Source of the DNA: Candidatus Lustribacter sp.
Lineage (GTDB): Bacteria > Vulcanimicrobiota > Vulcanimicrobiia > Vulcanimicrobiales > Vulcanimicrobiaceae
Direction of reading: 5' to 3'
NCBI GenBank assembly: GCA_965277805.1
Contig: OZ255842.1
Location: forward strand, 4,160,001-4,224,000
DNA length: 64,000 bases
Positions 11,416 through 42,959 of this stretch are shown piece by piece. Numbering within the stretch: position 1 is the first letter of the stretch; each line of letters opens with the position of its first letter. Position numbers and translations under genes: made by a program. The notes below the pieces were generated by a model. The model saw only the letters and a list, made by a program, of their open reading frames with translations. It made no database searches and was not told the origin of the DNA.

Positions 11416-13193
11416 ACGCTCCACGGGGCAAGTACGCCGTTCTCGAGAGCACCTTCGCGCCAGAACTCCATCCCCGCGGCGCTCGGCGCGCCCGCGACCG
11501 GATCAGCACTCAGATTTGCAAGGAGTTCGATCAGCACGCCGTTTTGCGACGTCCAACGCACCGACACGGCGCCCGGGCCGAGCACCGCGTATTCGCCGCC
11601 GTGCTGAATTTGCGGAAGCAGCGGAACGATCACCGCGCGACGGACCTCGAGAATGCGACGGTACCACGCCAGCCATTCGGCGTGCGGTTCTCGCTCGCGC
11701 GCGTTCCAATCGAGTTTCGCCGACGCAAACGTCGCCTCGGCTTCGGGATCGGGAATCGTCTCGCGCACGGCGGGGTCGGCGAACGCGGGGAAACGCGCGA
11801 ACTCTTCACGCCGCCCGCGGCTGACCGCCGCGGCCAACTCGCCGCTGAAGTCGCAGAAAAACGGAAAGGGTTGCTCTGCCGCCCATTCCTCGCCCATGAA
11901 CAGCATCGGAATTTGCGGCAGCAACAGCACGATTGCCGCGATGGCGCGCACGGCTTCTTTGGGCGCGATCGACGTGATGCGTTCGCCGAACGCCCGATTC
12001 CCGACTTGGTCGTGATTTTGGATGAACGCAACGAACGCATCCGGCGGCAGCTCCGCACTCGCTTCGCCGCGCGGCGCCGAGCGATACGGCATCAATTCGC
12101 CCTGAAAGGCGAAGCCTTCGGCCAGTGCGCGGCCGAGCCGTTCGGTGTTGCCGCAATAGTCGACGTAGTATCCGGTGTCCTCGTGCGTCGCAGCCGCATG
12201 CAGCACGTGGTGCACGTCGTCGTTCCACTGCGCCGTGAAGTAACGCGGGTTACCGTCGTTTCCGCGTGCTAAGCGCCGCGCTTCATTTTCCTCGTTCTCG
12301 AGAACCAAATGGATCGGGCGGCCGGTGACGGTCCTGCGAACGCGCTCGGCGAGGGCATCGAGCAGATGGACGGAGCCATCGTCGATGATCTCGTGGACCG
12401 CGTCGAGCCGTAACCCGTCGAGATGGTACTCCTCGAGCCAATAACACGCGTTCTCCATGACGAATTCGCGAACCACTTCGCTGCCGGGACCATCGTAATT
12501 GACGGCGTCGCCCCACGGCGTCTTGTGCCGGTCGGTGAAGAACGCGCGCGCATAGGTCGACAGATAATTGCCCTCGGGGCCGAAGTGGTTGTACACCGCG
12601 TCGAGCAGCACCATGATGCCCTGCGCGTGCGCCGCTTCGACGAAACGCTTGAAATCTTCGGGGCGGCCGTACTGCGAATCCGGCGCGAACGGCAGCACGC
12701 CGTCGTAGCCCCAGTTGAAGCGGCCCGGGAAATCCGCCACCGGCATGATCTCGACCGCGGTAACGCCGAGTTCGTGCAGATGAGGTAAGCGGGCTGCCGC
12801 GCCGGCGAACGTACCCTCGGGAGAAAACGCACCGACGTGCAGTTCGTAGAGAACCGCTTCGTGCCACGGACGGCCGGCCCAAGCATCGTCGCGCCAATCA
12901 TATGCGCGGGGATCGATGACCTCACTTGGCCCGTGCACGTCGTCGGGCTGAAAGCGAGAAGCCGGATCGGGTACCGCAATCCCATTCGGCAACACAAAGG
13001 TATATCGTGATCCCGGCCGCGCCGCAGCCGTGACCAGTTCGTGCCAACCATTATCTCCGGCGACGAGCGGCATTTGCGCGGGTGCGCCGTCGAGCGCGAT
13101 CAGCACCTGCGGTGCATCGGGGGCCCAGATACGAAAACGCACCCCGGCCGGCCCCGGCTCGGCGCCGAACGGCATCGAGCGAGTGCGAATCAT
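11388..13193 (-). CDS. treZ: Malto-oligosyltrehalose trehalohydrolase
   Basis: MPFGAE...PDPASRFQP, WGYDGV, YNHFGPEGNY, RLDAVH, QNHDQVGNR; ATG 13193 overlaps the glgX stop. Confidence 0.95.
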   Translation of the reverse strand: MIRTRSMPFGAEPGPAGVRFRIWAPDAPQVLIALDGAPAQMPLVAGDNGWHELVTAAARPGSRYTFVLPNGIAVPDPASRFQPDDVHGPSEVIDPRAYDWRDDAWAGRPWHEAVLYELHVGAFSPEGTFAGAAARLPHLHELGVTAVEIMPVADFPGRFNWGYDGVLPFAPDSQYGRPEDFKRFVEAAHAQGIMVLLDAVYNHFGPEGNYLSTYARAFFTDRHKTPWGDAVNYDGPGSEVVREFVMENACYWLEEYHLDGLRLDAVHEIIDDGSVHLLDALAERVRRTVTGRPIHLVLENEENEARRLARGNDGNPRYFTAQWNDDVHHVLHAAATHEDTGYYVDYCGNTERLGRALAEGFAFQGELMPYRSAPRGEASAELPPDAFVAFIQNHDQVGNRAFGERITSIAPKEAVRAIAAIVLLLPQIPMLFMGEEWAAEQPFPFFCDFSGELAAAVSRGRREEFARFPAFADPAVRETIPDPEAEATFASAKLDWNAREREPHAEWLAWYRRILEVRRAVIVPLLPQIQHGGEYAVLGPGAVSVRWTSQNGVLIELLANLSADPVAGAPSAAGMEFWREGALENGVLAPWSVCWSIEKPL

Positions 13194-15322
13194 GCCTCGG
13201 CCGTTATCAGCGCGAAAACGGCGACCGACCGCGCTGCGATCGTGTACGCATGATCGCTTTCCACGCGCACCTCTTGAGATTCGAGGGGTGCGTTCGTATC
13301 GGCGAGCCGCAGCCATGTGTCTCCGCCGGTCGTCACCGGCAGAATGAACGGCACGTCTTCGTGATAGGAGTTGAAGAGCAGCAACAGCGTGGCGTCTTGA
13401 CCGAGCCGGTGAATCCCGGTCGGCTGCGCGCGACCGTCGATCCGCATGCCGAACGTACGCGCGCCGTTCCACGCGTCGGGCGCGATCTCGGTGCCCGCCG
13501 GGTTGATCCACGTCACGTCCTTGACGTTCAGCGCTTCGTCATACGCGCCGGTCAAGAAGCGCGTGCGATGCAGGATGGGATATTGATCGCGGAGCCGGGT
13601 CAAGAGGGTCACGAAGGCCACGAGATCCTCGTGGACGTCGCGCAAGCTCCAGTCGACCCACGTGACCTCGTTGTCCTGGCAGTACGCGTTGTTATTGCCG
13701 TTCTGCGTGCGCCGGAATTCATCGCCGGCCAGCATCATCGGCGTCCCCTGGGATAACAGGAGCGTCGCCAGCATGTTGCGCACTTGGCGCGCGCGCAACG
13801 CCTCGATGTCCGGGTCGTCGGTCGGCCCCTCGACACCGCAATTCCACGAGCGGTTGTCGGAACTTCCGTCGCGATTGTCTTCCCCGTTTGCTTCGTTGTG
13901 TTTTTCGTTGTACGTGACGAGATCGTTCATGGTGAATCCGTCGTGCGCCGTGACGAAATTGACGCTCGACCACGGCCGGCGCCCATGATGATTGAAGATC
14001 TCTCCCGATGCGGTAATCGGCGACGTGATCGCCGTGGCCGGCGCTTCACCGCGCCAGTAGTCGCGCACGTTGTCGCGGAACCCGTCGTTCCACTCAGCCC
14101 ATCCCGGTGGAAAGCCGCCGACCTGATACCCGCCGGGTCCGATGTCCCACGGCTCCGCGATCAGCTTTACGTCGTTGAGCACCGGATCCTGAGCGCACGC
14201 GCGCAAGAACCCGCTGTCCGTATCGAATCCCCCCGGTTCACGCGCGAGAATCGTGCCGAGGTCGAAGCGAAAGCCGTCGACGCGCATCTCATTGACCCAA
14301 TAGCGCAGGCTATCGGTCACCATCTGAATCACGCGCCGGTTGGAGAGGTTGACGGTGTTTCCGGTGCCCGTGTCGTTGATGTAATAGCGCTTGTCTTCTT
14401 GCAAGCGGTAGTACGAGGCGTTGTCGATGCCTTTGAACGACAGCGTCGCCCCGCGTTCGTTGCCCTCGGCCGTGTGGTTGTAGACGACGTCGAGAATAAC
14501 TTCCAGTCCCGCCGCATGGAAGCGGGCGACCATTTCCTTGAATTCCTGCAGCACGCGAAACCGGTCGGCAGCGTAACGCGGATCCGGCGCGAAAAAACCG
14601 ATGCTGTTGTAGCCCCAATAATTCGTCAGGCCTTTTTCCAGCAGCTGACTGTCGTTCACGAAGGTGTGAACCGGGAGCAGTTCTACCGCAGTGACGCCGA
14701 GAGACTTGATGTAGGCGATAACTTCGGGGCTGCCGAGGCCTTCGTAGGTGCCGCGCAACGATTCCGCGACCCCGGGATGCCGTTTGGTATATCCGCGGAC
14801 GTGCATTTCGTAAATGATCGTGCGATCCCACGCCACGCGCGGCCGATCGCGTTGCCCGTGCCAATCGAAGCCCGGATCGACGACGACGCATTTGGGAACG
14901 TACGGCGCGCTGTCACGGGTATCGAAGCTCAGGTCCTCATCGGGATCGCCGACGGTATAGCCGAAGCAGGCGTCATTCCATTGCAATTCGCCGATGTGCG
15001 CCCGTGCGTACGGATCGAGCAGCAGCTTGTTTTTGTTGAACCGGTGTCCCGCGCTGGGATCGTAGGGACCATCGACGCGATAGCCATAAATCGTTCCGGG
15101 CCCGATGCCGGGGACGAAGCCGTGCCAAATTTCATTCGTGTATTCGGGCAACCGGATGCGTTCGCGCTCGATCTGACCGGAATCATCGAAGAGGCAAATT
15201 TCGACGCCGGTCGCGTTCGCCGAGAACAGCGCGAAATTTACGCCCTCGCCGGTCCATGTCGCGCCGATTGGATGAGGCAAACCCTCGCTTATTGCTAAAG
15301 GCGCGCTCGCAATGGTAGTCAC
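13190..15322 (-). CDS. glgX: Glycogen debranching enzyme
   Basis: NYWGYNSIGFF, DVVYNHTAEG, DGFRFDL, AEPWD, AHDGFT, GNNNAYCQDN; GTG start 15322. Confidence 0.96.
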   Translation of the reverse strand: MTTIASAPLAISEGLPHPIGATWTGEGVNFALFSANATGVEICLFDDSGQIERERIRLPEYTNEIWHGFVPGIGPGTIYGYRVDGPYDPSAGHRFNKNKLLLDPYARAHIGELQWNDACFGYTVGDPDEDLSFDTRDSAPYVPKCVVVDPGFDWHGQRDRPRVAWDRTIIYEMHVRGYTKRHPGVAESLRGTYEGLGSPEVIAYIKSLGVTAVELLPVHTFVNDSQLLEKGLTNYWGYNSIGFFAPDPRYAADRFRVLQEFKEMVARFHAAGLEVILDVVYNHTAEGNERGATLSFKGIDNASYYRLQEDKRYYINDTGTGNTVNLSNRRVIQMVTDSLRYWVNEMRVDGFRFDLGTILAREPGGFDTDSGFLRACAQDPVLNDVKLIAEPWDIGPGGYQVGGFPPGWAEWNDGFRDNVRDYWRGEAPATAITSPITASGEIFNHHGRRPWSSVNFVTAHDGFTMNDLVTYNEKHNEANGEDNRDGSSDNRSWNCGVEGPTDDPDIEALRARQVRNMLATLLLSQGTPMMLAGDEFRRTQNGNNNAYCQDNEVTWVDWSLRDVHEDLVAFVTLLTRLRDQYPILHRTRFLTGAYDEALNVKDVTWINPAGTEIAPDAWNGARTFGMRIDGRAQPTGIHRLGQDATLLLLFNSYHEDVPFILPVTTGGDTWLRLADTNAPLESQEVRVESDHAYTIAARSVAVFALITAEA

Positions 15323-15331
15323 CCCACGTTC

Positions 15332-15357
15332 TTTCCGACGATGTGAGCGACCCAAAC
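15332..15357 (-). promoter_or_regulatory. Putative SigB/SigF-type promoter of the glgX operon
   Basis: GTTT-N16-CGGAAA-N9-GTG on the minus strand. Confidence 0.55.
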
Positions 15358-15450
15358 CCGTTCGAGCGTGCGGCTCGCACGGTGCGATAGCGCGCTAACC
15401 ATCGCACGTGAACGCGCCGAATTGGGCTTCTGAACGGGTACACGTTGAGG

Positions 15451-15585
15451 ATGAACACCGAAAGTAAGCCGTCTCCTCCGCCCGAACCCGCAAAGCCGAA
15501 GCCGGAGATTCCCGGCGGCCCGGCCGCCACTCCCCCGACCCCGGAAGGGCGCGAAGCCGTTCTCGAGGAGGGGGAAGAGGCGTAG
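15451..15585 (+). CDS. Small Pro/Glu-rich hypothetical protein (44 aa)
   Basis: MNTESKPSPPPEPAKPKPEIPGGPAATPPTPEGREAVLEEGEEA*; fills the intergenic gap; GGGTAC lies 9 nt before the ATG. Confidence 0.55.
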   Translation: MNTESKPSPPPEPAKPKPEIPGGPAATPPTPEGREAVLEEGEEA

Positions 15586-15591
15586 CGTGCG

Positions 15592-16554
15592 TTAGCGCCT
15601 TCCGCTGCCGTTACCGTTGGAGCGCGTTTTGCGTTTCGTCGCCGTCGCTGACGACGGCGGCGCCGCCGGAGCTTCGCCGGAGATTTGTTCCGCCGTCACG
15701 CGGCTGGTCGGGTTCATTTCACCTTCCGGTACCGGACCTTCGGCGCTAGCGCACGAGGGCTTCGGATCCGGCAACTCGGGCTCGTCGCCGCCCGCATGCG
15801 GCTGGCTGATTTCAAAGGCCCAGAGTCCTTGCGAATTGACGAGGTCGAAACCGGGCGTCGCTTCGCTATCATCACCGGACTCATTGAAGTAGGCGTGCGT
15901 GAAGCGCTCGTCGGGTGGAACGTTTGAAGACGGGAAGTTATTCGCGATCGACGCCAAGGCCGACTCGAACATCTTTTGGTGCGCGACTTCGCGCGTCATG
16001 AGAAACGTTAGCGCGTCCGCAGCGCCCGGATCGGGGCACAGCTTGATCAGCCGGTCGTAGACGACTTTTGCGCGCGCTTCGGCAGCGATGTCGGAACGCA
16101 GGTCGGCGAGCGGATGTCCGATGCTGTCGATGTACGCCGCAGTCCACGGCGCCCCCATCGAATCGGTAAGACGGAGGCCGGCACCACCGGTCAAGACCGG
16201 GACCTGCGAGTTCCACGCGATTTCTTCGTATTTTTCTTGTTTGCCCTCAAGCAAATCTCCGAGGTACGATCCCTCGACCTCATCGATGAGCGCTCCGGCG
16301 CCTTTGGCTCCCTTGAGAAACCCGGAGATGAGCTGCCCGATCATCTCGAGATGGGAGAGTTCCTCGGTGGCAATGTCGAGCAACATATCCCGGCGCGCGA
16401 CGTCGCTTTCACCCCAGCCTTGCGTGAAGTAGCGCATCGCCGCTCCGAGCTCGCCGTTGGGACCGCCGAACTGTTCGAGGCAAAGCTTCGCGAATGCGAC
16501 ATTCGGAGCGTCCACGTGGACGGTGTATTGCAGTTTCTTATTGTGGACGAACAT
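15592..16554 (-). CDS. Manganese catalase family protein with low-complexity basic C-terminal tail
   Basis: MFVHNKKLQYTV, EQFGGPNGEL, DIATEELSHLEM, DIAAEARA, REVAHQKMF; GAGG upstream of ATG 16554. Confidence 0.93.
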   Translation of the reverse strand: MFVHNKKLQYTVHVDAPNVAFAKLCLEQFGGPNGELGAAMRYFTQGWGESDVARRDMLLDIATEELSHLEMIGQLISGFLKGAKGAGALIDEVEGSYLGDLLEGKQEKYEEIAWNSQVPVLTGGAGLRLTDSMGAPWTAAYIDSIGHPLADLRSDIAAEARAKVVYDRLIKLCPDPGAADALTFLMTREVAHQKMFESALASIANNFPSSNVPPDERFTHAYFNESGDDSEATPGFDLVNSQGLWAFEISQPHAGGDEPELPDPKPSCASAEGPVPEGEMNPTSRVTAEQISGEAPAAPPSSATATKRKTRSNGNGSGRR

Positions 16555-16602
16555 ATTGTTTCTAGAGATCTTCCTCACGGGAGTAGAGTGCGGGTATGCG
16601 CT

Positions 16603-16628
16603 TTGCCCGGAGCGTCAACGCACAAAAC
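16603..16628 (-). promoter_or_regulatory. Putative SigB/SigF-type promoter of Mn-catalase
   Basis: GTTT-N16-GGGCAA. Confidence 0.65.
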
Positions 16629-16644
16629 AAATTCGATGAAACAC

Positions 16645-16677
16645 AAAAAAAGGCGGACGCCGTAGCCTCCGCCTTTT
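16645..16677 (-). terminator. Rho-independent terminator after the hemerythrin gene
   Basis: Minus strand AAAAGGCGGA-loop-TCCGCC followed by T7, just after the stop at 16682. Confidence 0.85.
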
Positions 16678-16681
16678 CATC

Positions 16682-17269
16682 TCATCGCCGCGCCGTCGAT
16701 TTTCGTTTGACGGGCGCCGGCGTCGTGCGCTTCTTTCGATGGGCGCCGGATCCGGCTAATGCTCGCTCCTTGAAGCGCAGCATTTCGGCGCCGAGCGCTT
16801 GCAATTTGTCGCCGAGCACTTTGCGCGCCTCATCGAAGATCTCCGATTCCTCTTCCTTGACGTGGTGCTCGACCAGCTCTTTGAGAACGGTGACCTTCGC
16901 CTCCATCGTTTCGTCGCGCCCCTGAATGCGTTTGATCTTTGCAATTAGTTCCTTGACGCAAGCATGCTCTTCATGAGCCTCTAGGACGCTATCCTTTTCT
17001 TTTTGCTTCCCCGCCTTACGGAGGGCCGGATAGAAGAACTTCTCTTCCATGTTGGCATGCACGGTGAGCGCCACGCACACCTTGGCGATGGCAGCCCTTT
17101 TGGCAGCCGCTGAAGCAGAGTCATCGAGTGCCGCCTTGAAGAGCGCCGCCGCTTCTTCATGATCGCTATGAATGAGCTCGAGGGCATCCGGTGCTTGCGC
17201 CCCACCGTCGCCGTTCGCACTTCGCACTTGACGAACCAGATCGCTGACAAGATTCACGAGCAACCTCAT
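16682..17269 (-). CDS. Hemerythrin (HHE) domain protein with basic C-terminal tail
   Basis: DALELIHSDH, LTVHANMEEKFFYP, EAHEEH, LVEHHVKEEE. Confidence 0.9.
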   Translation of the reverse strand: MRLLVNLVSDLVRQVRSANGDGGAQAPDALELIHSDHEEAAALFKAALDDSASAAAKRAAIAKVCVALTVHANMEEKFFYPALRKAGKQKEKDSVLEAHEEHACVKELIAKIKRIQGRDETMEAKVTVLKELVEHHVKEEESEIFDEARKVLGDKLQALGAEMLRFKERALAGSGAHRKKRTTPAPVKRKSTARR

Positions 17270-17278
17270 TTAAAATAG

Positions 17279-17315
17279 TTGCCCGGCAGGTACCCGACGC
17301 TAAATCGGCCTAAAC
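17279..17315 (-). promoter_or_regulatory. Tandem putative SigB/SigF-type promoters of the hemerythrin gene
   Basis: GTTT-N16-GGGTAC plus an overlapping ATTT-N17-GGGCAA-N9-ATG. Confidence 0.65.
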
Positions 17316-17510
17316 GCCTTCGCTTATTTGTGGCAAAGAACGCGATCTGCGCACCCGTTGCGGATACGGCGTGCGTTCCGTACGCGCGATGTCGATTACG
17401 GCGCTGAGGCATCGTGCACGGTCGCGGTCGCACGCGCACCGTTCGCACCCGGTCGTCCGGCCGTGCGCTTCGAAGCTGTGCCCACACGGGCAGATCATGA
17501 GAAAGTCCAT
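17310..17510 (-). CDS. Small Cys/His-rich hypothetical protein (66 aa), possible metal binder
   Basis: CPCGH...H...CERCAC...C; co-oriented with neighbours. Confidence 0.5.
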   Translation of the reverse strand: MDFLMICPCGHSFEAHGRTTGCERCACDRDRARCLSAVIDIARTERTPYPQRVRRSRSLPQISEGV

Positions 17511-17566
17511 AGATCAACGGTAATCGTCCCTGCGATGCGTCGCAGTACGATACCGTGCACACGCGA

Positions 17567-17755
17567 CTACATCTTCAAGAGTTCGATATAATCGATATCT
17601 TCGGGTTTGTCGATCGACGTTTGCGAGCTGCCTGCGTCGACTTGATAGCCGGAATCCGCCGGTCGTAAGAATCCCTGGAAGATCGCTCCAGATTCAAGAT
17701 ACACGGCGACGCATTTGCCGACGAACGGCGAGATCTCGTCCGGTTTCATCGCCAT
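17567..17755 (-). CDS. Small hypothetical protein (62 aa), possible Sm/LSm-like or SH3-like beta-barrel
   Basis: TAATG stop/start overlap with the DUF4142 gene; VGKCVAVYLESGAIFQGFL resembles the Sm1 pattern. Confidence 0.6.
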   Translation of the reverse strand: MAMKPDEISPFVGKCVAVYLESGAIFQGFLRPADSGYQVDAGSSQTSIDKPEDIDYIELLKM

Positions 17756-18273
17756 TACATGCCGCCATGACGGGAGCCGTCGATCATCGCCAGATGGCTT
17801 TGGATCGTCGGCAAGGTGTTGCGCGCGAAGGCAACCAGGCGCCGGTCACTGCCGGTCGCTATTTCCTTTTGGAACAGCGCGATCGTCATTTCGTGAGCAG
17901 TCGCCTGACCCTTGAGATACGACGAGGCAAACGCAGCGCCGGCGAGCGACCGCTGTCTCGCCATCATGGCTTGATCGGCGGGCGCGGGCGTGGCCGGAAG
18001 CATGATGCCTTCGGCGAGCGCGATCGCTTCCAATTTTGCGTTGGCAAGCGAATGATCGGTGACCATGCGCTGCGCGATCGCGTGGACGTTCGCGTTCGTC
18101 GACTTTCGGAGTGCGAGTTTGCCGTCCGCCACTTCGGCCATTCCGCCTTGCGCGGCTTTCATTGCGAAGGTCGTGTCCGCCATCGACGGGGCCGCGACGG
18201 CCGGCGCGTACACTGCTACACCGAAGCACACGGCGGCGGCCGTGATCGTGCCGAGAAGTACTTTATTATTCAT
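17755..18273 (-). CDS. DUF4142 family secreted ferritin-like protein
   Basis: Signal peptide; FAMKAAQGGMAEV, AQRMVTDHSLAN, TLPTIQSHL. Confidence 0.88.
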   Translation of the reverse strand: MNNKVLLGTITAAAVCFGVAVYAPAVAAPSMADTTFAMKAAQGGMAEVADGKLALRKSTNANVHAIAQRMVTDHSLANAKLEAIALAEGIMLPATPAPADQAMMARQRSLAGAAFASSYLKGQATAHEMTIALFQKEIATGSDRRLVAFARNTLPTIQSHLAMIDGSRHGGM

Positions 18274-19009
18274 GCTGCCCGTGTTCCGCGGGAACTTCGT
18301 CGATAAACTTCGCTCCCGCGTGTGCGACGAGTTCGCGCAACGTTTTCGTCTCGAGCGCGTGCGCAAAGTCGAGCGGCCGATCGAACGTCGCGGCCGATTC
18401 CGCGAGGTCTGATTCCGGCGAACCTCCGCTGCGCAAGGCAATCGCGGGCACTCCCGCCGCGTGCGCCGCCTCGATATCATAGCGCGTATCGCCGAGCATT
18501 ACGGCGTTGACGAGCCGCGACCGCGCGGCAAGCAGTGCCGCGTGGACGATATCCGGAGCCGGCTTGGATTGCTCGGCGTCATTAGCCGTCGCTCGCGCAT
18601 CGATCAGATCGGCGACTTCGGCGATTTTAAGCAGCGCATCGACCTGATCGTTACTCGCGGAGGTCGCGATGACGCACCGTACGCTTTGGCGCTTCAGTGC
18701 AAGCAGCAAATCGCGCGCGCCGTCCGTCGGACGAATCGACGCGAGATAGCGCTCCTTGAAAATCTCGCCCTCGCGGCGCGCCGCGGTTTTGCCGGGCTCG
18801 CGCGTCGCCGCGAGAGCGGGGGAGAGCCGGGGAAGCAACTGATCGGCGCCCATCCCGATCAGGGACCGTACGCTGGCGAACGATCGGGCCACGCCGATTT
18901 CGGCAAGCGCCTCGACCCAGGCGTGCGCGTGCGCGTCGTTACTGTCGACCAGCGTCCCATCGACGTCGAGCAGAATAGTATCTATGACAGGGCGGTAGAC
19001 GCGCAGCAT
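18266..19009 (-). CDS. HAD-superfamily hydrolase/phosphatase
   Basis: LLDVDGTLVDSN, IATSA, KPAPD, GDTRYD. Confidence 0.92.
   Translation of the reverse strand: MLRVYRPVIDTILLDVDGTLVDSNDAHAHAWVEALAEIGVARSFASVRSLIGMGADQLLPRLSPALAATREPGKTAARREGEIFKERYLASIRPTDGARDLLLALKRQSVRCVIATSASNDQVDALLKIAEVADLIDARATANDAEQSKPAPDIVHAALLAARSRLVNAVMLGDTRYDIEAAHAAGVPAIALRSGGSPESDLAESAATFDRPLDFAHALETKTLRELVAHAGAKFIDEVPAEHGQHE
18283..18308 (-). promoter_or_regulatory. Putative SigB/SigF-type promoter of the DUF4142 gene, inside the HAD 3' end
   Basis: GTTT-N16-CGGAAC-N9-ATG. Confidence 0.55.
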
Positions 19010-19021
19010 CGCGTGCCGCGT

Positions 19022-19048
19022 TTGCCCCGGAATATGAGCCCGCGAAAC
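19022..19048 (-). promoter_or_regulatory. Putative SigB/SigF-type promoter of the HAD gene
   Basis: GTTT-N17-GGGCAA-N12-ATG. Confidence 0.6.
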
Positions 19049-19073
19049 ATATTCGGCCGAAAGCAGATTTGAG

Positions 19074-19113
19074 TTAGCAAAATATTGACGACAGTGCTAG
19101 GCACCGTTAAAAT
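19074..19113 (+). promoter_or_regulatory. Sigma70/SigA promoter overlapped by a degenerate CIRCE-like element, upstream of hsp20
   Basis: TTGACG(19085)-N17-TAAAAT(19108); TTAGCAAAA-N9-CAGTGCTAG (19074-19100) versus CIRCE TTAGCACTC-N9-GAGTGCTAA. Confidence 0.6.
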
Positions 19114-19328
19114 ATTGCCGTGAGCCGGCCCTATGGCCGCTCCGGAGGCAAGAATGACGACGCCATTCGCTGTGGATGCGCCGCATCTGCAGCCAACATA
19201 CGTCGCCCGTGCCCGCGCGGCGCGCGACGTCTCGATCAACGATTATTCGTGGGCCGCGAGCCCGCATATTTACCACAATTACGTCTTTTCGCAGACTTCA
19301 CCATGCCGGGAAGGAGCATCGATTTCCA

Positions 19329-19742
19329 ATGTCTGCAGAACTCTCGAACGACAACCGCAATACGAATAATTTCGCGTCCAACGGCGCAGCGGTAGCGTAT
19401 AGCCCGTTACGTGAAATGCTCGGCTACGATCCGTTTCGCCGATTTTTTTCAAATGTCGACCCGCAAATCGACGTCATCCGGACGGACGCCGGCTTCGAGG
19501 TGGAAATCCCGGTCCCCGGGTTCAAGAACGAGCAGATCGAGCTCGTCGTCAAAGAAAACGTGCTCACCTTAACTGCAAAGAGCGACCGGCGCGCGTTCAC
19601 GCGCTCGCTCAAATTGCCCGATGACGTCGACGCCCAGAATATCGAAGCGAGCGTTGACAACGGACTGCTCACGCTCGTGCTCAAGCGGCACCCCGACGCG
19701 CAGCCGCGGCGCATCGAGATTAAGGCCCGCGGCCAATCGTAA
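19329..19742 (+). CDS. Small heat-shock protein Hsp20/alpha-crystallin
   Basis: AAGGAG upstream of ATG; EIPVPGF, FTRSLKLP, ASVDNGLLTL, RRIEI (IXI motif). Confidence 0.93.
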   Translation: MSAELSNDNRNTNNFASNGAAVAYSPLREMLGYDPFRRFFSNVDPQIDVIRTDAGFEVEIPVPGFKNEQIELVVKENVLTLTAKSDRRAFTRSLKLPDDVDAQNIEASVDNGLLTLVLKRHPDAQPRRIEIKARGQS

Positions 19743-20775
19743 ATCGCACGCGAGAAATTTTCGCGTCAGCCGCGCCGTAGTACACATCGATTGCATCCGG
19801 GGCGACCTCGTCGATACCGGTCGGAAAGACGACGTCGTTGACCGTTCCAAACCGTTCCGCTAGGGTTTCGGGGACGAGTACCGGCACGGGCGAGCGGTAC
19901 ACGATGCGATGCGGGATGTGGATGTCGTTGATGAGGATGCCGGCGCTGTACAGAAGCGAAGGGCCGGCCGGGCCGTCGACGGCATCCACGCCGTGAAACA
20001 CCGAGAGCCATCCGAGCCTCGTGCGAATCGGCGGGGTGCCGGCCCCGTTTTTGAGCCGGCCCCATTCCGTGCCGGGCTCCAACACGCGGACGCTTTCAGC
20101 CGGCCGGCACAACATCGTCAAGTCGCGTTTCACCGCCTCGACCGGGATGTAGGCGAGGCAGGCCGCTTCGCGCTCTTCCGGCGGCAGCGACAAGATGACC
20201 GGGATCGGCGTCTGTCCGTTGATCGTTTCAGGCCGCATCGGCCGGTGAAAGAATGCGAATGATGGAACGCCGGCAGGTGAACGTACCGGATCCGGAAAGA
20301 AGGCCGCGTCTTTGTTGTCGACGTCGTTGAGCGCGTCGCCCGGAAACCGCACTAGGCCGAGCCTCGTCCAGTCATACGCATCGGCCGAAATCGCGAGCGC
20401 GATGCGTGCGCCGCGTGGGCCGAATGCGGTATAGGCCATGACGTAATGGCCGATGTCGGGCACAAAGGTCACGCGCGCGTCTTCGCAACCGTGACCGGCG
20501 GGCACCGAACGTTGCTCGTACTCCGCTTCGGGTTCGAGCACGATTCCGAGGCGCTCGATTCTTCCGCCGCCATCCATCCGAGCCAACCCGATACGTGAGA
20601 CGTTGCCTTTGGCAACCATGCGCGGAAAAAGCAGCAGATTGCCCGAGCGGTCGCGCGCCGTTCCCGGATTGAGCACGCCCTCGAGTTCGAGCGGAGAGCC
20701 GTCCGGCGACATCACGACCCCGAGACGCTCACTCGACAGCGCTAACGTTCCCGCCAAGACTTCGGGAGAGAGCAC
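19720..20775 (-). CDS. GH130-like glycosidase/phosphorylase (five-bladed propeller)
   Basis: GVLNPG, CEDARV, NKDAAFFP, HRP, VVFPTG, YYGAAD. Confidence 0.85.
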   Translation of the reverse strand: MLSPEVLAGTLALSSERLGVVMSPDGSPLELEGVLNPGTARDRSGNLLLFPRMVAKGNVSRIGLARMDGGGRIERLGIVLEPEAEYEQRSVPAGHGCEDARVTFVPDIGHYVMAYTAFGPRGARIALAISADAYDWTRLGLVRFPGDALNDVDNKDAAFFPDPVRSPAGVPSFAFFHRPMRPETINGQTPIPVILSLPPEEREAACLAYIPVEAVKRDLTMLCRPAESVRVLEPGTEWGRLKNGAGTPPIRTRLGWLSVFHGVDAVDGPAGPSLLYSAGILINDIHIPHRIVYRSPVPVLVPETLAERFGTVNDVVFPTGIDEVAPDAIDVYYGAADAKISRVRFTIGRGP

Positions 20776-20778
20776 CTA

Positions 20779-23025
20779 TCAGTGCTCGCCGGCCGCGGCC
20801 ATGGGTCCGACAACCAGCGAGCCGTCCGAAGGCTCCGCGCAGTGGATCGCGACCGTCTGACCGCCACGCAGCGCAAACGTCGCATGACCGTCCGCCGACA
20901 GCTTGCCATGGACCGGAACCGACACGCTGCCGGCCTCCACGGTAACCGTTATGGAGCGCGCTATGCCGGCAACGTCCGCTGGTCCGACCCGAAGCTCGCA
21001 GCTTCCCCGGGGGTCGCCGCCGACGCGCCAGCTGCCGCCGTCACGTGCCGGCACAAAGTCGAACATGGGGTAATTGCAAAATGCAATCATGCCCGTGCCC
21101 TCGAGAGCCTGGTAGTGTCTCGACGTCATGACGAACGGCAAGCCGGCACCGTAGATCTCCTGACCGACCTGTCCCGACTGTTCGCGGCCGTCTTGTAGAT
21201 CTTCGAGCGGCACGTTCAGCCCGCGCACGATGCGCCCGTTGCGCGGCTTTTCTGCGATGACATCGACCGGCAGGCTGTCGGGATAGTAATACCAGCAACG
21301 GTCGAGAGCGTACTTCTGGTACTCCGAGAGCAAGTATCTCAGCGCCGGCCGCAGATCGTCACCGCCGAGCGAGAGGTACTCGTGAAACTTTGCATGCGCT
21401 TCCAGTTCCTCGTAGGGCGCGATGTAGGGCGCGTCGCGTAACGGGAACAGGCCGAAGAACGTGCGGTAGTGACGCGCGTGTTCGTATTCGCACTGCCATA
21501 GCCACATGTTATCGAAGAGGTTGGCGAGACACGATTCGCTGAGCTCGAGATAGCGCGACTTCTTGGTCAGCTTCCACAAACGCAGCGCGGCTTCGGCAGC
21601 GAACCCGGTCGTATTCAACTGGTAGGCCAGATTGAAGGCTAACCCGTGGAGGCGCGAGACCGCGACTTCGGCTTCCCGGAGATATTCGGCATCGCCGAAC
21701 ATCTCGTGCGCATGGATCATCACGAGCCCGTAAAGACCGGCCACATCGGTCTCGCCGCCTTCGCCGGGCCGCGCTTCAGCTCGGATGACATCGATCGTTT
21801 TCAGATTGAAAAAGACGGGCCATCGGTAATCGAATCGATGAGCGACACGTATCAGGTAGGGCAGGCTCTTCTTGAAGGCGTCTTTCGCGCCCGCATCGCC
21901 GTCGAGCGCGATTCGAAACAGGTTGAACAACGCATGGTGTAAGTACCAGCTGTCCATCGCTTCGTGGTTCATGTTGTCTTCGGGCTGCGCGCCTTCGAAC
22001 GGCTCGCCGGGGAGCCAGCGAACGATCGAACCGATCTCCTCGTCATAGAAGGCCGTCGCGTTTTCGCGCAGTGTCTTCGACAACGCACTTACTTCGTTGC
22101 GCCACCCGTCGTATTCGCCGGCATTTACCGCAAGGGTAAACTGCACCATGCTCTCCGGCGGCTTCGTTTCATCGCCGGCATAGGGCATGAGGTGACGGCG
22201 GCCCTGACGCACGTACGAACACAGCGGCGAGAACGACAGATCGCGTAACGCATCGCCGGCGCGCTGAGCCCAGTTGTGATATTGTGGTTCCGGCTTGTCG
22301 AGGAGCGCGTAGGTTGCGGCGAGCTGGTCGAGATAGAGCCCCGCGAGCGCTTCCGAGTGCGGCACGTCCGCAGTCAACGAAACGAAGGCATCGGAAACCA
22401 CGATGTCGCGGGCTTTCGGTAAAATGCAGCCGTCGCCGGAGGGCGGCGCATATCCCAATTCCGGGCCCGTACCGCCGACCGTGCCGGCCGGCGTACGCTT
22501 CGTTTCGGCCAGGTACTCGCTGAGTGCGCTAAAATTCTGATAGTAGAAAACGGAGAAGGGTGCGGGTTGGCGGGCGCTTGCGAACAGGATTCCGCTGCGC
22601 AGTCCACGCTGGCTCGTATGTATCGTAACATCGCTTGCGGCGGCGAACAGGTCGCGGGGCCATTCCGTGATCTGCATGTCTTGGGCCGGCATCAACGACG
22701 TCGTGCAGCGTACCGTGGCCGGCTCGTGCATTTCGATCTTCGCGCGGACGGGGCCGAGCGGCGTCGTAAATTCGCATCCGGCCGTTCCGTCTGCGTTCGA
22801 CGATGTCAGAACGTTGGAGATTTCGCTCGCGCCCGGACCGAGTCGAAGGTATGCGACTTCGGAACCCTTGAGGGACAGCGCTAACCAAACGTTGGAACGT
22901 CCCCGGGCCGCGCGGACGCTCACATTTCCGGCAGCGGCGATCGTACCCAAATCGACGGCCACTTCGAGGTCGCCCCGCAAACCGAGCGCCGACGCTGACA
23001 CTGGTGGCGAGGCGGTGGCGCTCAT
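20779..23025 (-). CDS. Hypothetical 748-aa protein; core suggests a six-hairpin (alpha/alpha)6 glycosidase-like fold
   Basis: Long ORF with normal composition ending 3 nt before the GH130 start; helical repeats such as GDAEYLREAEVAV and KSRYLELSESCL; fold is inference. Confidence 0.75.
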   Translation of the reverse strand: MSATASPPVSASALGLRGDLEVAVDLGTIAAAGNVSVRAARGRSNVWLALSLKGSEVAYLRLGPGASEISNVLTSSNADGTAGCEFTTPLGPVRAKIEMHEPATVRCTTSLMPAQDMQITEWPRDLFAAASDVTIHTSQRGLRSGILFASARQPAPFSVFYYQNFSALSEYLAETKRTPAGTVGGTGPELGYAPPSGDGCILPKARDIVVSDAFVSLTADVPHSEALAGLYLDQLAATYALLDKPEPQYHNWAQRAGDALRDLSFSPLCSYVRQGRRHLMPYAGDETKPPESMVQFTLAVNAGEYDGWRNEVSALSKTLRENATAFYDEEIGSIVRWLPGEPFEGAQPEDNMNHEAMDSWYLHHALFNLFRIALDGDAGAKDAFKKSLPYLIRVAHRFDYRWPVFFNLKTIDVIRAEARPGEGGETDVAGLYGLVMIHAHEMFGDAEYLREAEVAVSRLHGLAFNLAYQLNTTGFAAEAALRLWKLTKKSRYLELSESCLANLFDNMWLWQCEYEHARHYRTFFGLFPLRDAPYIAPYEELEAHAKFHEYLSLGGDDLRPALRYLLSEYQKYALDRCWYYYPDSLPVDVIAEKPRNGRIVRGLNVPLEDLQDGREQSGQVGQEIYGAGLPFVMTSRHYQALEGTGMIAFCNYPMFDFVPARDGGSWRVGGDPRGSCELRVGPADVAGIARSITVTVEAGSVSVPVHGKLSADGHATFALRGGQTVAIHCAEPSDGSLVVGPMAAAGEH

Positions 23026-23034
23026 GATCGAATA

Positions 23035-23105
23035 TTCACCACGAACGTGCGCGCATAAACACGTTCGCAGTTTGAATTCGTTTCACGCGGCAGCAGCGGG
23101 GGCAC
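23035..23105. promoter_or_regulatory. Back-to-back divergent SigB/SigF-type promoters
   Basis: Minus: GTTT(23060-57)-N16-GGTGAA-N9-ATG(23025). Plus: GTTT(23080-83)-N16-GGGCAC-N9-GTG(23115). Confidence 0.65.
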
Positions 23106-23114
23106 GACGACCGC

Positions 23115-24329
23115 GTGTTGCAAGCCGCATCGCATCGCCGGGATGGCAACTTCGCGCGCATGACGCTGCCGAGATTGGCGGGGGTCGGTGCCGCATTCGC
23201 CGTGAGCATCGGATACATGGATCCCGGCAACTGGGCAACCGACCTGAACGCGGCATCCTATCGTTTCACTCTGCTGTGGGCCGTCGTCGCCGCCGGCGTC
23301 GCTGCCTGCATCTTGCAGGTTCTCGTCTTGCGGTTTGTCGGCGCAAGCGGACTCGGCCTGAGCGAGGCAGTCAAACGAACGTTTGCGAAAGCGAACGGTC
23401 CGCTATCGCTCACATATATCGGTGCGATCGTGGCCACGGAGGTCGCGGAGTTTGTCGGCCTCGTCGTCGGGCTGCAAATGGTTTTCCGGCTCGATTTACG
23501 CCCGGCGATTGCGATAGGACTCGCGATATTCTTGTTACTGCTTTTGGCCGGCGGCTTCACGTTCAGGCGATTCGAGCGCATCGCGATCGTGACGACCTCG
23601 CTCCTTGCCCTCATCTATGCGGTGGAGATCGGCGTCCTCCACCCACCGGTTTTGCCGATCCTGCGTGGTGCTCTGCTGCCGGCGGTCCCGGACGGCGGCG
23701 CTTGGATTGCAGTGGTCGGCATCCTCGGCGCCACGATCATGCCCCACAACCTTTTCTTACACGCCGGCCTCTTCAAGGATCACCTCAGAGCAAAAGCGGA
23801 TCGTGATGCGGCTGCAAGCGTTAGGCGGGCTGCTTGCGCGACCGTTTGCACCTTGCTCGTAGCAACGCTCGTGAACGCGGCGATCCTTATCGTCGGCGCG
23901 GCGACGCACGGTACGACGATCGAACAAGCATTTCTTACGCTTCGGCCGCTTGCCGGGCCGACCGCTTCGCTCGTCTTCGGCATCGCTCTGATCGGCGTGT
24001 CGGTGGCGGCGACCGCCGGCGGTGCGTGCGCGGGCGACATCATCTGTGCCGACGCGCCGATAAAGCTCTCGCAGCTTCAGCGCCGACTGATCGCCCTTTC
24101 GCCGGCGGTCGTGCTGCTCGTCGCCGGCTGTTCGCCGATGGCGCTGCTCGTCTGGTCGCAGGTTGCGCTGGCCGCCGCGCTGCCGGCCGTCGTGATCCCG
24201 CTCTTCATCCTCGTCGCACGTCAACGCAACATGAGAAATCCGTTCGATCGGGCGCTCATCGGGCTCTCGGCACTCGTTCTCATCGCGTCGTGCACCTGCG
24301 ATGTGATCTTGTTGTCGACCTCGTCATAG
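23115..24329 (+). CDS. mntH: NRAMP family Mn2+/Fe2+ transporter
   Basis: YMDPGNWA and MPHNLFLH metal-site motifs; many hydrophobic helices. Confidence 0.9.
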   Translation: MLQAASHRRDGNFARMTLPRLAGVGAAFAVSIGYMDPGNWATDLNAASYRFTLLWAVVAAGVAACILQVLVLRFVGASGLGLSEAVKRTFAKANGPLSLTYIGAIVATEVAEFVGLVVGLQMVFRLDLRPAIAIGLAIFLLLLLAGGFTFRRFERIAIVTTSLLALIYAVEIGVLHPPVLPILRGALLPAVPDGGAWIAVVGILGATIMPHNLFLHAGLFKDHLRAKADRDAAASVRRAACATVCTLLVATLVNAAILIVGAATHGTTIEQAFLTLRPLAGPTASLVFGIALIGVSVAATAGGACAGDIICADAPIKLSQLQRRLIALSPAVVLLVAGCSPMALLVWSQVALAAALPAVVIPLFILVARQRNMRNPFDRALIGLSALVLIASCTCDVILLSTSS

Positions 24330-40749: not shown

Positions 40750-41913
40750 CTATGCGGCGACCAGAAACTCAGCCGGTTTCGGACCCGTCCGGAGTTTCCA
40801 CAGCAACCAAGCGACGATGCGTTCCGCGGCGTGGCCGTCGCCGTAGGGATTCGAGGCTCGCGCCATCGCCGTGTACACGCCGTCCGTATCCTCGAGGAGC
40901 CGGCGGCTCCAGGCGACGATCTCGGCGGGCTCGGCCCCAACCAGGCGCAGGGTCCCGGCCTCGAGGCCCTCGGGGCGCTCGGTCTCCCGGCGCATTACCA
41001 AAACCGGCTTGCCGAGGGTCGGCGCCTCCTCTTGGAGCCCGCCCGAGTCGGTCAGCACGAAGCGCGACCGCGTCACGGCCGCAACGGTCGAGGCGTAGTC
41101 GAGCGGCTCGGTCAGCCGGATCCCGTCGACGCCGGTCAGGAGCGGCCGGATGACCGGACCCACCTGAGGCGAGGGATGGAGCGGCCAGAGGATCTGCGGC
41201 CGCTGCGGGAAGGCCGCGATCGCCTTGATGGCCTGCGCGATGCCCGGCATCGCGGCATGGTTCTCGCGCCGGTGCGCGGTGACGAAGATCAGCGGACGCT
41301 CGGGGTCGAGCCCGGCCAGTGCCTCGGGCACCGGACGCCGTTCGAGCCGGCGGGTCGCATCGAGGAACGCGTCAATCACGGTGTTGCCGGTGACGATCAC
41401 CTCGTGGTCGTCGAGCCGCTCGGCCAGCAGGTTCGCTTTGGACCCGGCCGTGGGCGCGAAGTCGTAGCTCGCGATCACGCCGGTGAGCCGGCGGTTGAGC
41501 TCCTCGGGAAACGGCTCGTTGATCGTGGCGGTCCGCAGGCCGGCCTCGACGTGACCGACCGGAATCTTCGCATAGAAACAGGCCAGCGCCGTTGCAGTCG
41601 ACGTGGTCGTGTCGCCGTGCACGAGCACGACGTCGGGCTGATGCTGCGCCAGCACCGGCTCCATGCCGATCAGCACGCGCGTGGTGATGTCGGTCAGGGT
41701 CTGCGTTTTCGTCATGATGTTGAGATCGACGTCGGGCACGATCTCGAAGAGCCGCATGACGTCGTCGACCATCTCGCGATGTTGCGCGGTCACGCACACG
41801 ATCGTTTGGATCGCCGGCGCCGCCGCTTTCAGCGCCGCAACGACCGGCGCCATCTTGATCGTGTCGGGCCGCGTGCCCATGACGACCATAATCTTGAGCG
41901 GATTGACTGCCAC
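40750..41913 (-). CDS. wecB: UDP-N-acetylglucosamine 2-epimerase (non-hydrolysing)
   Basis: GTRP, HGDT, HVEAGLR, HRREN, DSGGLQEE, NPYGDG. Confidence 0.96.
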   Translation of the reverse strand: MAVNPLKIMVVMGTRPDTIKMAPVVAALKAAAPAIQTIVCVTAQHREMVDDVMRLFEIVPDVDLNIMTKTQTLTDITTRVLIGMEPVLAQHQPDVVLVHGDTTTSTATALACFYAKIPVGHVEAGLRTATINEPFPEELNRRLTGVIASYDFAPTAGSKANLLAERLDDHEVIVTGNTVIDAFLDATRRLERRPVPEALAGLDPERPLIFVTAHRRENHAAMPGIAQAIKAIAAFPQRPQILWPLHPSPQVGPVIRPLLTGVDGIRLTEPLDYASTVAAVTRSRFVLTDSGGLQEEAPTLGKPVLVMRRETERPEGLEAGTLRLVGAEPAEIVAWSRRLLEDTDGVYTAMARASNPYGDGHAAERIVAWLLWKLRTGPKPAEFLVAA

Positions 41914-42959
41914 TACGGGGGTGTACCCGCCATCACGGAAATTCCCGCCTGTGCGAGGCGCAACGACGCAACGCCGCCCGAGAGCAGGAACGCTACGATG
42001 CCGAGCGCCGCACAGAGCACGTAGATCAGCAGCACCGCTTGCCGCACGTTGAGCCCGAAGCGGAATACCAGCTGATGGTGGAAGTGGCCGCGATCACCTT
42101 CGGTGATCTTCTTCCCCATCGACGTGCGGCGTACGATCGTGACGGCCGTATCGAGAATCGGCAGCGCCAGCGCCACGAGCGGAATGAGCAGCGAGATCGT
42201 GAACGCGGTTTTCGAGGTGCCGATGATTGAGACGGTTGCGAACACGTAGCCGATGAAGAGCGCGCCCGAATCGCCGAGAATGATCGTGGCCGGATTGTAG
42301 TTGAAGGGCAGGAAGCCGAGCGCGCCGCCGACCAGCGCCGCCAGCACCAGCGCGAGTTCGGGATGACCGTGACCGACCGCGATGATCGCGAGCGACGCAC
42401 CGGAGATCGCGGTGAGTCCCGAGAGCAAGCCGTCGAGCCCGTCGATGAAGTTGATGGCGTTCATCATGCCGACGTACCAGATCAGCGAGAGCGCATAGTT
42501 CCACGGCACCGCGAAGTGGATGTAGTTGCCGCGCGCGAACGGATTCTCAATGTCCTTGATGACGAATCCGTAGAGCAGCGAGATGCCGGCGACGATGATC
42601 TGCGCGACGAACTTGTTGCGCGGACGCATCCCCATGATGTCGTCCCAGATGCCGACCATCAAGATCAGCGTGCCGCCGAAGAGCATGCCGATGACGTCGT
42701 GGATCTTGTCGAAGTCGCGCAACTGATTGCGCGCGATCAAATAGCCGAGCACCGAAAAGAGCGCGAACGCAAAGCCGAGGAAGACCGCGATGCCGCCGAT
42801 GCGCGGCTTCGGCTGCTCGTGCATGCGGCGCTCGCCGATCTCGTCGACCATGCCGACGTGGGTCGCGAGCTTGCGCACGAGCGGGGTCGCGAAGGCGGCG
42901 GTCAAGGCCGCGAGCCCGACGACGACTCCCAGAATCGGCAGCAGGGTCAACGGAGTCAT
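41913..42959 (-). CDS. MraY/WecA/TagO-family undecaprenyl-phosphate GlcNAc-1-P transferase
   Basis: PRIGG, GIWDD, NAINFIDGLDGL, LGDSG, HFHH. Confidence 0.94.
   Translation of the reverse strand: MTPLTLLPILGVVVGLAALTAAFATPLVRKLATHVGMVDEIGERRMHEQPKPRIGGIAVFLGFAFALFSVLGYLIARNQLRDFDKIHDVIGMLFGGTLILMVGIWDDIMGMRPRNKFVAQIIVAGISLLYGFVIKDIENPFARGNYIHFAVPWNYALSLIWYVGMMNAINFIDGLDGLLSGLTAISGASLAIIAVGHGHPELALVLAALVGGALGFLPFNYNPATIILGDSGALFIGYVFATVSIIGTSKTAFTISLLIPLVALALPILDTAVTIVRRTSMGKKITEGDRGHFHHQLVFRFGLNVRQAVLLIYVLCAALGIVAFLLSGGVASLRLAQAGISVMAGTPP

Follow-up and report, generated by a model that had tools for sequence, protein, structure and literature searches.

The DNA analysed here is a window of 64,000 nucleotides (nt) from Candidatus Lustribacter sp. 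(contig OZ255842.1 of assembly GCA_965277805.1, positions 4,160,001 to 4,224,000), an organism whose genome is a single contig of 5.53 Mb with 64% G+C. Positions 13190-24329 of this window hold an island composed of glgX (CBM48 plus alpha-amylase domains in Pfam), which is the first gene in a glycogen/trehalose gene row, followed by genes for a Mn-catalase (Mn_catalase, 1.3e-65, the profile beginning at residue 2), a hemerythrin-domain protein (Hemerythrin, 1.2e-12), a DUF4142 protein, a HAD hydrolase, an Hsp20 protein (HSP20 match), a GH130 enzyme, a neighbouring protein of 748 amino acids (aa) without any Pfam family, and the transporter MntH (Nramp, 1.2e-61). Nine sites resembling SigB/SigF promoters had been read ahead of these genes in an original prediction from the sequence, which proposed a fixed spacing between promoter and start codon; all nine were found as written, and their coordinates were fixed in the sequence (Table 1). 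The analysis of the whole genome makes it likely that the island belongs to a regulon of a SigB/SigF-type alternative sigma factor extending over the genome, many of whose promoters would lie at leaderless distance from the start codon.

The positional signal was assessed upstream of 4667 open reading frames (ORFs) delivered by a simple codon-bias caller, which ignored ORFs shorter than 60 aa and dropped DUF4142 by an overlap rule. When every 5-mer was scanned at every offset from the start codon, GGGTA at offset 15, corresponding to GGGTAN-N9-start, ranked second after the Shine-Dalgarno (SD) sequence AGGAG, being present in 40 genes versus 2.7 expected (P 1.6e-32), and at 57 versus 8.8 expected sites when all candidate starts were considered. 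At the same position GGGAA was observed 16 times for 4.5 expected and CGGAA showed a mild excess (17 versus 7.3), and the counts for GGGCA (6 versus 5.5) and GGTGA (7 versus 5.5) were close to expectation. Across the genome the proposed hexamer-N9-start geometry was thus borne out for GGGTA only. Independently of gene calls, GGGTA-N9-C[AG]TG was found 75 times, whereas flanking spacers yielded 32 and 20 occurrences and in-phase spacers 24-43. In non-coding DNA, moreover, GTTT preceded GGGTA 7, 9 and 5 times at spacers of N15, N16 and N17, against a mean of 2.4 over 15 other spacers, a total of 21 versus 7.2 expected that is of promoter type. The more permissive GTTT-N16-GGGNAN showed no excess when both strands of the entire genome were counted (71 versus 60-85 for other spacers), and GTTT at -35 of all candidate starts, with 46 occurrences, fell within the 41-85 of other offsets. 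The element fixed with respect to the start codon is the GGGTA -10 and not GTTT, as had been supposed; the -35 is degenerate (GNNT), and the class is genome-wide and not a property of the island.

The 57 GGGTA-class sites start with ATG (40) or GTG (17) and never with TTG, have C at base -1 in 36 cases, and carry an SD tetramer in only 5, versus 948 of the 4667 ORFs. With +1 set at the start codon's first base, the A of GGGTA at offset 15 falls on -11, where the flipped-out adenine of the -10 universally lies. In addition, the alignment to several Pfam profiles begins only a few residues from the N-terminus proposed (TPP_enzyme_N with residue 4 at profile position 2, FAD_binding_3 with 5 at 2, DJ-1 with 8 at 1), which fits the proposed start codons. 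From its sequence context, GGGTAN-N9-start is a strong signal across the genome and bears the marks of leaderless transcription, since the fixed distance between the -10 and the start codon, the C at -1, the purine at +1, the lack of TTG and the scarcity of SD sequences all point indirectly to leaderless mRNAs. The island mRNAs are probably leaderless as well, their promoters being so near the start codons. The four sequencing runs listed as containing the stretch, all from one study, include none recorded as RNA. The earlier remark that the genes behind the nine sites have no well-spaced SD also held, as inspection by eye revealed no GGAG, GAGG or AGGA 5-17 nt ahead of the starts; GAGGAAG occurs 15 nt 5' of the Mn-catalase ATG, and GAGG directly abuts the ATG of the 44-aa ORF.

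A sigma factor of the type presupposed by the original prediction, accompanied by RsbV and RsbW, was found about 12 kb before the window. This protein of 273 aa reached 286.5-286.8 bits on the SigB/F/G model TIGR02980 (cut-off 234.35), and no other ORF of the genome exceeded this cut-off. It remained under the narrower cut-offs for SigF (PRK07122, 257 versus 372 bits), Sigma_B (TIGR02941, 227.6 versus 315) and sporulation SigF (185 versus 321); it is a member of the SigB/F/G subfamily and no equivalog of any named sigma factor. Its neighbours are an RsbW-like protein of 143 aa (105.7 bits on PRK04069, under the cut-off of 145) and an RsbV-type STAS antagonist of 114 aa (107.2 bits on TIGR00377, cut-off 53.45), and the gene order rsbV-rsbW-sigma is that of a partner-switching system. 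Ahead of rsbV lie a YtxH-like gene and a gene for a membrane protein of 140 aa, giving a five-gene operon DUF948-like/YtxH-like/rsbV/rsbW/sigma. A GTGT-N16-GGGTAC promoter heads this operon, its distance from the sigma gene being about 1570 nt; GGAGG-N4-GTG is part of the leader of about 30 nt behind it. Among the 62 of 80 relatives' loci having the full 3 kb upstream, GNNT-N15-17-GGGTA was present 1000-2100 nt upstream of the sigma gene in 22, and at least 11 shared a homologous layout, with GTGT or GCGT, a spacer differing in sequence, GGGTAY and a leader ending in CGGAGG. This promoter has the features of a conserved promoter footprint, and its being of the sigma's own type suggests autoregulation. 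The other sigma factors found in the genome are RpoD, a SigBFG-like protein of 233 aa with a weak match (141.6 bits), WhiG/FliA, a FliA-like protein and a sporulation-type SigH. The last of these, of 215 aa, matched the sporulation SigH model of Firmicutes with 358.6 bits and surpassed the cut-offs of three SigH models (208, 212 and 294.8 bits) in a host that is not a Firmicute; GTTT-N17-GGGTAA lies 11 nt ahead of the ATG of its gene.

In the regulon proposed here, the 273-aa group-3 sigma factor, encoded with its anti-sigma kinase RsbW and the antagonist RsbV, would recognize promoters of the form GNNT (often GTTT or GTGT)-N15-17-GGGTA(N), and its target genes would be induced by stress. In a large share of these promoters the A of GGGTA would stand at -11 relative to a start codon whose A or G is +1, so that transcription would begin on the start codon itself or one or two bases off, and the mRNA would be translated with neither a leader nor an SD. 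The claim that an alternative sigma factor drives stress genes largely through leaderless or short-leader mRNAs was correct as to its kind, given the matching sigma factor, the GGGTA signal and the classic general-stress families concerned. It was wrong in scope, the regulon being genome-wide and not confined to the island, and three weak hexamers had been over-read.

The same positional signal would be expected if GGGTA at -15 were the G-rich extended -10 of the sigma-A of this lineage, and the class simply its strongest ordinary leaderless promoters. A sigma-A-type leaderless class, TANNNT-N6-start, is indeed present, with 79 genes versus 23.9 expected; TA at -12/-11 from the start was recorded in an excess of about 180 genes over background. 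Both classes favour G at -13, the TANNNT class preferring G at -14 and -13 (43/79 and 32/79), NNGTA without GG is enriched at the offset of GGGTA (65 versus 24.1; 19 versus 5.6), the share of T at -7 is alike in both, and the GGGTA class has a weak -35. The -35 regions of the two classes differ, however. GNNT occurs at N15, N16 and N17 in 17.5, 22.8 and 10.5% of the GGGTA class versus 8.9, 6.3 and 2.5% of the TANNNT class (background about 5% each), and anywhere at N15-17 in 51% versus 18% (background about 16%). T at -32 is found in 25/57 versus 12/79 sites (P 3.6e-4), and TTGC within -42..-27 is enriched in the TANNNT class only (15/79, 3.9 expected), being outside the ten most enriched 4-mers of the GGGTA class. 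The excess of GTTT-N15-17-GGGTA in non-coding DNA and the conserved GGGTA-type promoter heading the sigma operon also speak against sigma-A as the only reader of these sites.

The gene content of the two classes is likewise unlike. According to Pfam, the 57 GGGTA-class genes include Dps/ferritin (with GTTT-N16), Fe/Mn superoxide dismutase, DJ-1/PfpI and BON proteins, topoisomerase IB, an ATP-dependent DNA ligase, UDG and a UvrA-like ATPase, as well as an alpha-amylase-family enzyme, an aldo-keto reductase, SDR, cytochrome oxidase subunit III and cytochrome c, together with many DUFs, small family-less proteins and ordinary enzymes such as GlpX, lumazine synthase and a TPP enzyme. The TANNNT class, scanned for the first 60, in genome order, of its 72 ATG/GTG genes, is mostly catabolic and housekeeping, with six Rieske oxygenases, three glyoxalases, amidohydrolases and hydantoinases, besides NusA, NifU, FAD synthetase, TetR, PhoU, cytochrome bd and MsrB. 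It was also noticed that these are chiefly aromatic-catabolism and housekeeping genes with a TTGC-type -35, and that two SpoIIE/PP2C-domain proteins turned up by chance in the same scan. The contrast in gene content qualitatively fits a general-stress regulon, and the sigma-A explanation of the GGGTA class is considered quite improbable.

Several observations weigh against the assignment to a SigB/SigF-type regulon. The ORF calls come from a crude, self-made caller; GGGCA and GGTGA lack positional enrichment at -15 in the 5-mer scan; GTTT at -35 is not enriched when the longest starts are taken (11 genes versus about 13 elsewhere); and three of the four cases of exact 31-nt spacing use hexamers lacking genome-wide backing. 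T at -7 is found in about 34% of the GGGTA class versus about 39% of the other TA(-12/-11) excess, so the -10 alone does not tell the two sigma factors apart, and the sorting of genes into stress families is only qualitative. The signal is also weaker in relatives. A reversed-pattern control in 15 other genomes of the family revealed no excess (147 versus 160); this control gave about twice the flanking-spacer baseline in the Lustribacter genome (19 versus about 8.5) and was judged a poor baseline, and the counts of GGGTA-Nx-C[AG]TG were therefore redone with spacer controls in five genomes from five genera of the family. For N9, N8, N10 and the in-phase N6, respectively, these were 41, 20, 25 and 23 in G043, 28, 13, 14 and 31 in G024, 52, 27, 32 and 37 in G009, 39, 23, 31 and 36 in G014, and 41, 23, 22 and 21 in G054, summing to 201, 106, 124 and 148. 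The excess in these relatives is real yet smaller than in the Lustribacter genome, and in G024, where a repeated element inflates the in-phase control, N9 does not rise above that control. The 15-mer GGGTACGGAGGCGTG, composed of a -10-like element, an SD-like element and a start, recurs at least 13 times in G024, which suggests that promoters of this type are carried there by a multicopy mobile element.

Table 1. Positions of promoter-like sites, genes and associated elements (window coordinates unless marked otherwise)
Feature	Element	Position	Strand	Remarks
glgX site	GTTT-N16-CGGAAA-N9-GTG	15320-15357	-	GTG at 15322; gene 13190-15322
44-aa ORF site	GGGTAC-N9-ATG	15436-15453	+	ORF 15451-15585; no GNNT at N15-17
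Mn-catalase site (leadered)	GTTT-N16-GGGCAA	16603-16628	-	about 45 nt 5' of ATG; gene 15592-16557
Hemerythrin P2	GGGCAA-N9-ATG	17267-17284	-	coordinates include the start codon
Hemerythrin P1	GTTT-N16-GGGTAC	17290-17315	-	full SigB/F-type consensus, 20 nt ahead of ATG 17269
DUF4142 site	GTTT-N16-CGGAAC-N9-ATG	18271-18308	-	ATG at 18273
HAD site (leadered)	GTTT-N17-GGGCAA	19007-19048	-	12 nt from hexamer to ATG
HAD operon		HAD 18266-19009, DUF4142 17755-18273, 62-aa ORF 17567-17755	-	HAD stop 18266-18268
748-aa gene site	GTTT-N16-GGTGAA-N9-ATG	23023-23060	-	ATG at 23025; gene 20779-23025, then GH130 gene 19720-20775
mntH site	GTTT-N16-GGGCAC-N9-GTG	23080-23117	+	GTG at 23115; gene 23115-24329; second possible start ATG 23160, 45 nt further downstream
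Extension ahead of GTTT	(C)GAA-N3	15357-15365, 16628-16636, 17315-17323, 19048-19056, 23060-23068, 23071-23079		
Inverted repeat, 748-aa/mntH divergent region	CGAACGTG-N10-CACGTTCG	23042-23049 and 23060-23067		
Inverted repeat, HAD promoter spacer	CCGAATATG...CATATTCCGG	19020-19052		
hsp20 promoter, sigma-A-type	TTGACG-N17-TAAAAT	19085-19113	+	ORF to 19742
hsp20 promoter region	direct repeat of AAAATATTG	19070-19120	+	repeat on both sides of TTGACG-N17-TAAAAT
UDP-GlcNAc 2-epimerase site	GGGTAC-N9-GTG	41911-41928	-	gene 40750-41913; genome-wide class member outside the island
273-aa sigma gene		genome 4147538-4148359	-	
Sigma-operon promoter	GTGT-N16-GGGTAC	genome 4149950-4149925	-	
215-aa SigH-type sigma gene		genome 2495019-2495666 (L006:1132-1779)	-	

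Within the island, the good sites are those of hemerythrin P1, Mn-catalase, HAD and mntH, which combine GTTT with GGGNAN, and that of the 44-aa ORF. Four of the 71 non-coding GTTT-N15-17-GGGNAN sites of the genome, among them those of Mn-catalase, hemerythrin P1 and HAD, fall within the eight neighbouring transcription units of the island, where 0.12 would be expected (Poisson P about 8e-6, calculated post hoc). Furthermore, when GTTT stands exactly 35 nt before a candidate start (n=46), GGGNAN is found at -15 in five cases (Dps, COX3, mntH and two others), versus 0/70 and 1/60 in the controls with GTTT at -34 and -36, and 0.27 expected. The mntH site has the full geometry and is a candidate leaderless promoter. 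The exact 31-nt rule found no genome-wide backing for CGGAAA, CGGAAC or GGTGAA; GGGCA alone likewise lacks positional enrichment, although mntH with its GGGCAC belongs to the five complete GTTT-N16-GGGNAN-N9-start sites. As a promoter of its own, hemerythrin P2 is doubtful, because GGGCA at -15 is not enriched in the genome. The small ORF of 44 aa, located between glgX and the Mn-catalase gene, encodes a protein rich in proline and glutamate that has no Pfam family. Its GGGTAC-N9-ATG matches the geometry enriched across the genome perfectly, and its product may be a small stress protein missed by annotation.

At glgX, DUF4142 and the 748-aa gene, the exact spacing may be a coincidence helped by the free choice of start codons, these genes being expressed from other promoters or by read-through, a possibility that deserves some credence although it is not the favoured one. 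GTTT is unenriched at -35, and among the 46 sites with GTTT at this position, NGGNAN or GGNNAN without GGG is found only at these island sites (2; about 1.6 expected including GGG). The start of glgX is ambiguous, the longest ORF beginning with TTG at 15355, and its CGGAAA is a weak hexamer. The site read ahead of DUF4142 falls within the 3' part of the HAD coding sequence, the DUF4142 ATG and the HAD stop overlapping each other (ATGAATAA); on a simpler reading, DUF4142 is probably just the second gene of the HAD operon, expressed by read-through and coupled translation. Coincidence is countered by the CGAA-N3-GTTT context that these sites have in common with the good island sites and, for the 748-aa gene, by its orthologues, 5/6 of which have a -10-like element at leaderless distance: GGGAAA-N9-GTG (L147), GGGAAA-N9-ATG (L155), GGGTAT-N10-ATG (L148), GGGTAA-N10-ATG (L150) and TAGTAT-N6-ATG (L156). 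The sixth (L149) is leadered, with GTTT-N16-CGGTAT plus an SD. An alternative, sigma-A-like GAATAT-N6-ATG overlaps the 748-aa gene site, which, like that of glgX, is retained as a weaker candidate.

The GTTT elements of the island have a further peculiarity, since GAA-N3-GTTT is present at six of the seven GTTT sites, five times as CGAA, whereas about 0.58 would be expected per 8 kb from the 400 occurrences in the genome (P about 3e-5, post hoc). All three GAA-N3-GTTT-N16-GGGNA of the genome are in the island, as is one of the two with N17. As a general extension of the -35, GAA-N3-GTTT was discarded, given its 400 occurrences versus 333-530 for other GAA-GTTT spacings and its absence from the GTTT-N16-GGGTA sites outside the island. 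A reading of CGAA-N3-GTTT as a Cheo box or LexA box was also dropped, the half-site spacing being a misfit when compared by eye with the box consensus.

The SigB/F-type sites elsewhere in the genome lack this extension, and the island may therefore be under one more regulator or a further sigma factor; the pattern was recognized post hoc. Taken to its end, (C)GAA-N3-GTTT would be the operator of a local factor, responsive for example to Mn or peroxide, or the -35 recognized by the second SigBFG-like sigma, and the island a small regulon of its own whose likeness to the SigB/F consensus is superficial. Besides the frequency of the pattern, the common Mn/oxidative-stress theme of the island genes agrees with this explanation, as do the inverted repeats overlapping the promoters of the 748-aa gene and of HAD, which may be operator sites. 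No candidate regulator was found, however, (C)GAA-N3-GTTT sits where a SigB/F -35 is expected with GGGNAN rightly spaced behind it, and the same set of genes is SigF-dependent in Mycobacterium smegmatis. A separate regulon of this kind is unlikely, and a local operator would in any case be compatible with SigB/F-type promoters. A bolder proposal, itself rather improbable, combines both aspects: the general-stress sigma of the Baltobacteraceae would start transcription exactly on the start codon of about 40-60 genes, making much of the stress response leaderless, and an island sub-regulon would be marked by the extended -35 CGAA-N3-GTTT, which is restricted to the island and whose reader could be either the second SigBFG-like sigma or an activator coupling Mn uptake, Mn-catalase, hemerythrin and glycogen/trehalose turnover. 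If this were true, leaderless translation could persist under conditions that impair SD-led initiation.

The island has the appearance of accessory DNA. Only 4/80 other genomes of the family were found to carry the 748-aa gene and 3/45 mntH, and the Lustribacter genome, at 5.5 Mb, exceeds in size every one of the 80 relatives sampled from the family (1.6-4.7 Mb). No alignment of the upstream regions and no footprint was obtained for the mntH orthologues, which show 41-49% identity. A metagenome scan for the 748-aa protein yielded three loci, two of them with usable upstream DNA. One island gene, hsp20, has a sigma-A-type promoter in place of a SigB/F-type one; the direct repeat flanking this promoter is a possible heat-shock operator.

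Peat, tundra and volcanic soils are rich in Eremiobacterota (Vulcanimicrobiota), the phylum to which Candidatus Lustribacter belongs and which, to our knowledge, has a single cultured representative. The statement that such a regulon was apparently undescribed for this lineage was upheld, as the literature searched contained no paper from the phylum on sigma factors or leaderless mRNAs: nothing related to Eremiobacterota sigma factors appeared among the matches, judged by their titles and the openings of their abstracts, none of the matches listed was relevant to leaderless mRNAs in Eremiobacterota, Vulcanimicrobium or WPS-2, and nothing in print was found on promoters or translation initiation in Eremiobacterota. 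The sequence statistics supply a usable promoter model for the alternative sigma and a second one for the sigma-A leaderless genes, and the rule that (A/G)TG follows GGGTA after 10 nt should fix start codons and flag small unannotated ORFs. These results amount to a clean, sequence-level definition of candidate promoter and translation-start rules for a nearly uncultured phylum, whose value lies in annotation and in the building of expression tools, and not in a new mechanism.

Among known systems, the sigma-A leaderless promoters of Actinobacteria and Deinococcus, with TANNNT, are alike in placing an A (at -11) 11 nt ahead of the start codon's first base, and unlike the present class in that GGGTA does not require T at -7 and is associated with another -35 and another gene content. 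Bacillus subtilis sigma-B shares the order rsbV-rsbW-sigma and an own-type promoter ahead of the operon, and YtxH-like, Dps, catalase and DJ-1/PfpI-type genes are members of the Bacillus regulon too. The Lustribacter sigma falls short of the TIGR02941 cut-off, and Bacillus mRNAs are SD-led, whereas many Lustribacter targets appear leaderless. The Bacillus consensus is quoted as GTTTAA-N12-14-GGG(A/T)A(A/T) in a Streptomyces study (PMC8346170). According to that study, the S. coelicolor SigB and its eight homologues resemble the present system in a degenerate GNNT -35 and a -10 with invariant GGG and A at position 5; proven -10 hexamers are GGGCAA and GGGCAC behind GTTTnn-N14, GGGAAA being also used, and the transcription start sites lie 8-10 nt past the hexamer (PMC8346170, Table 2). 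The nine Streptomyces paralogues cross-recognize their promoters, whereas Lustribacter has one clear and one weak SigBFG-like sigma.

The closest known system is the mycobacterial SigF regulon, that of M. smegmatis and M. tuberculosis. SigF, with its anti-sigma RsbW/UsfX and the antagonists RsfA/RsfB, is likewise a group-3 SigB/F/G sigma with partner-switching neighbours, and its consensus GTTT-N14-19-GGGTA includes GGGCA and GGGAA variants. In a study of M. smegmatis (PMC4694148, Table 1), the SigF-dependent genes comprise the adjoining hemerythrin and Mn-catalase genes MSMEG_6212 and MSMEG_6213, GTTT-N15-GGGTA being the promoter of hemerythrin genes, as well as KatA, the Dps-like MSMEG_6467 (GTTC-N16-GGGCA) and the trehalose synthase MSMEG_6515 (GTGT-N16-GGGTA, 10 nt from the start). 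Several of these promoters lie 8-10 nt from the annotated start, as at MSMEG_6211 (GGTT-N15-GGGTA, 9 nt) and MSMEG_6305 (GTTT-N16-GGGCA, 8 nt). In another report, the GGGTA -10 motif was present at 56 hypoxia-induced starts and 24% of transcripts were leaderless (PMC6448022). The Lustribacter system differs in belonging to another phylum, in a sigma factor that is not an equivalog by PRK07122, in a looser -35 (GNNT), and in the dominance of a rigid spacing between -10 and start codon, found at 40-57 genes. The SigF-type stress programme of mycobacteria, with hemerythrin and Mn-catalase, Dps and trehalose genes, is met again in this unrelated phylum, with promoters abutting the start codons in both, and the mechanism proposed here is the known mycobacterial one in a new phylum.

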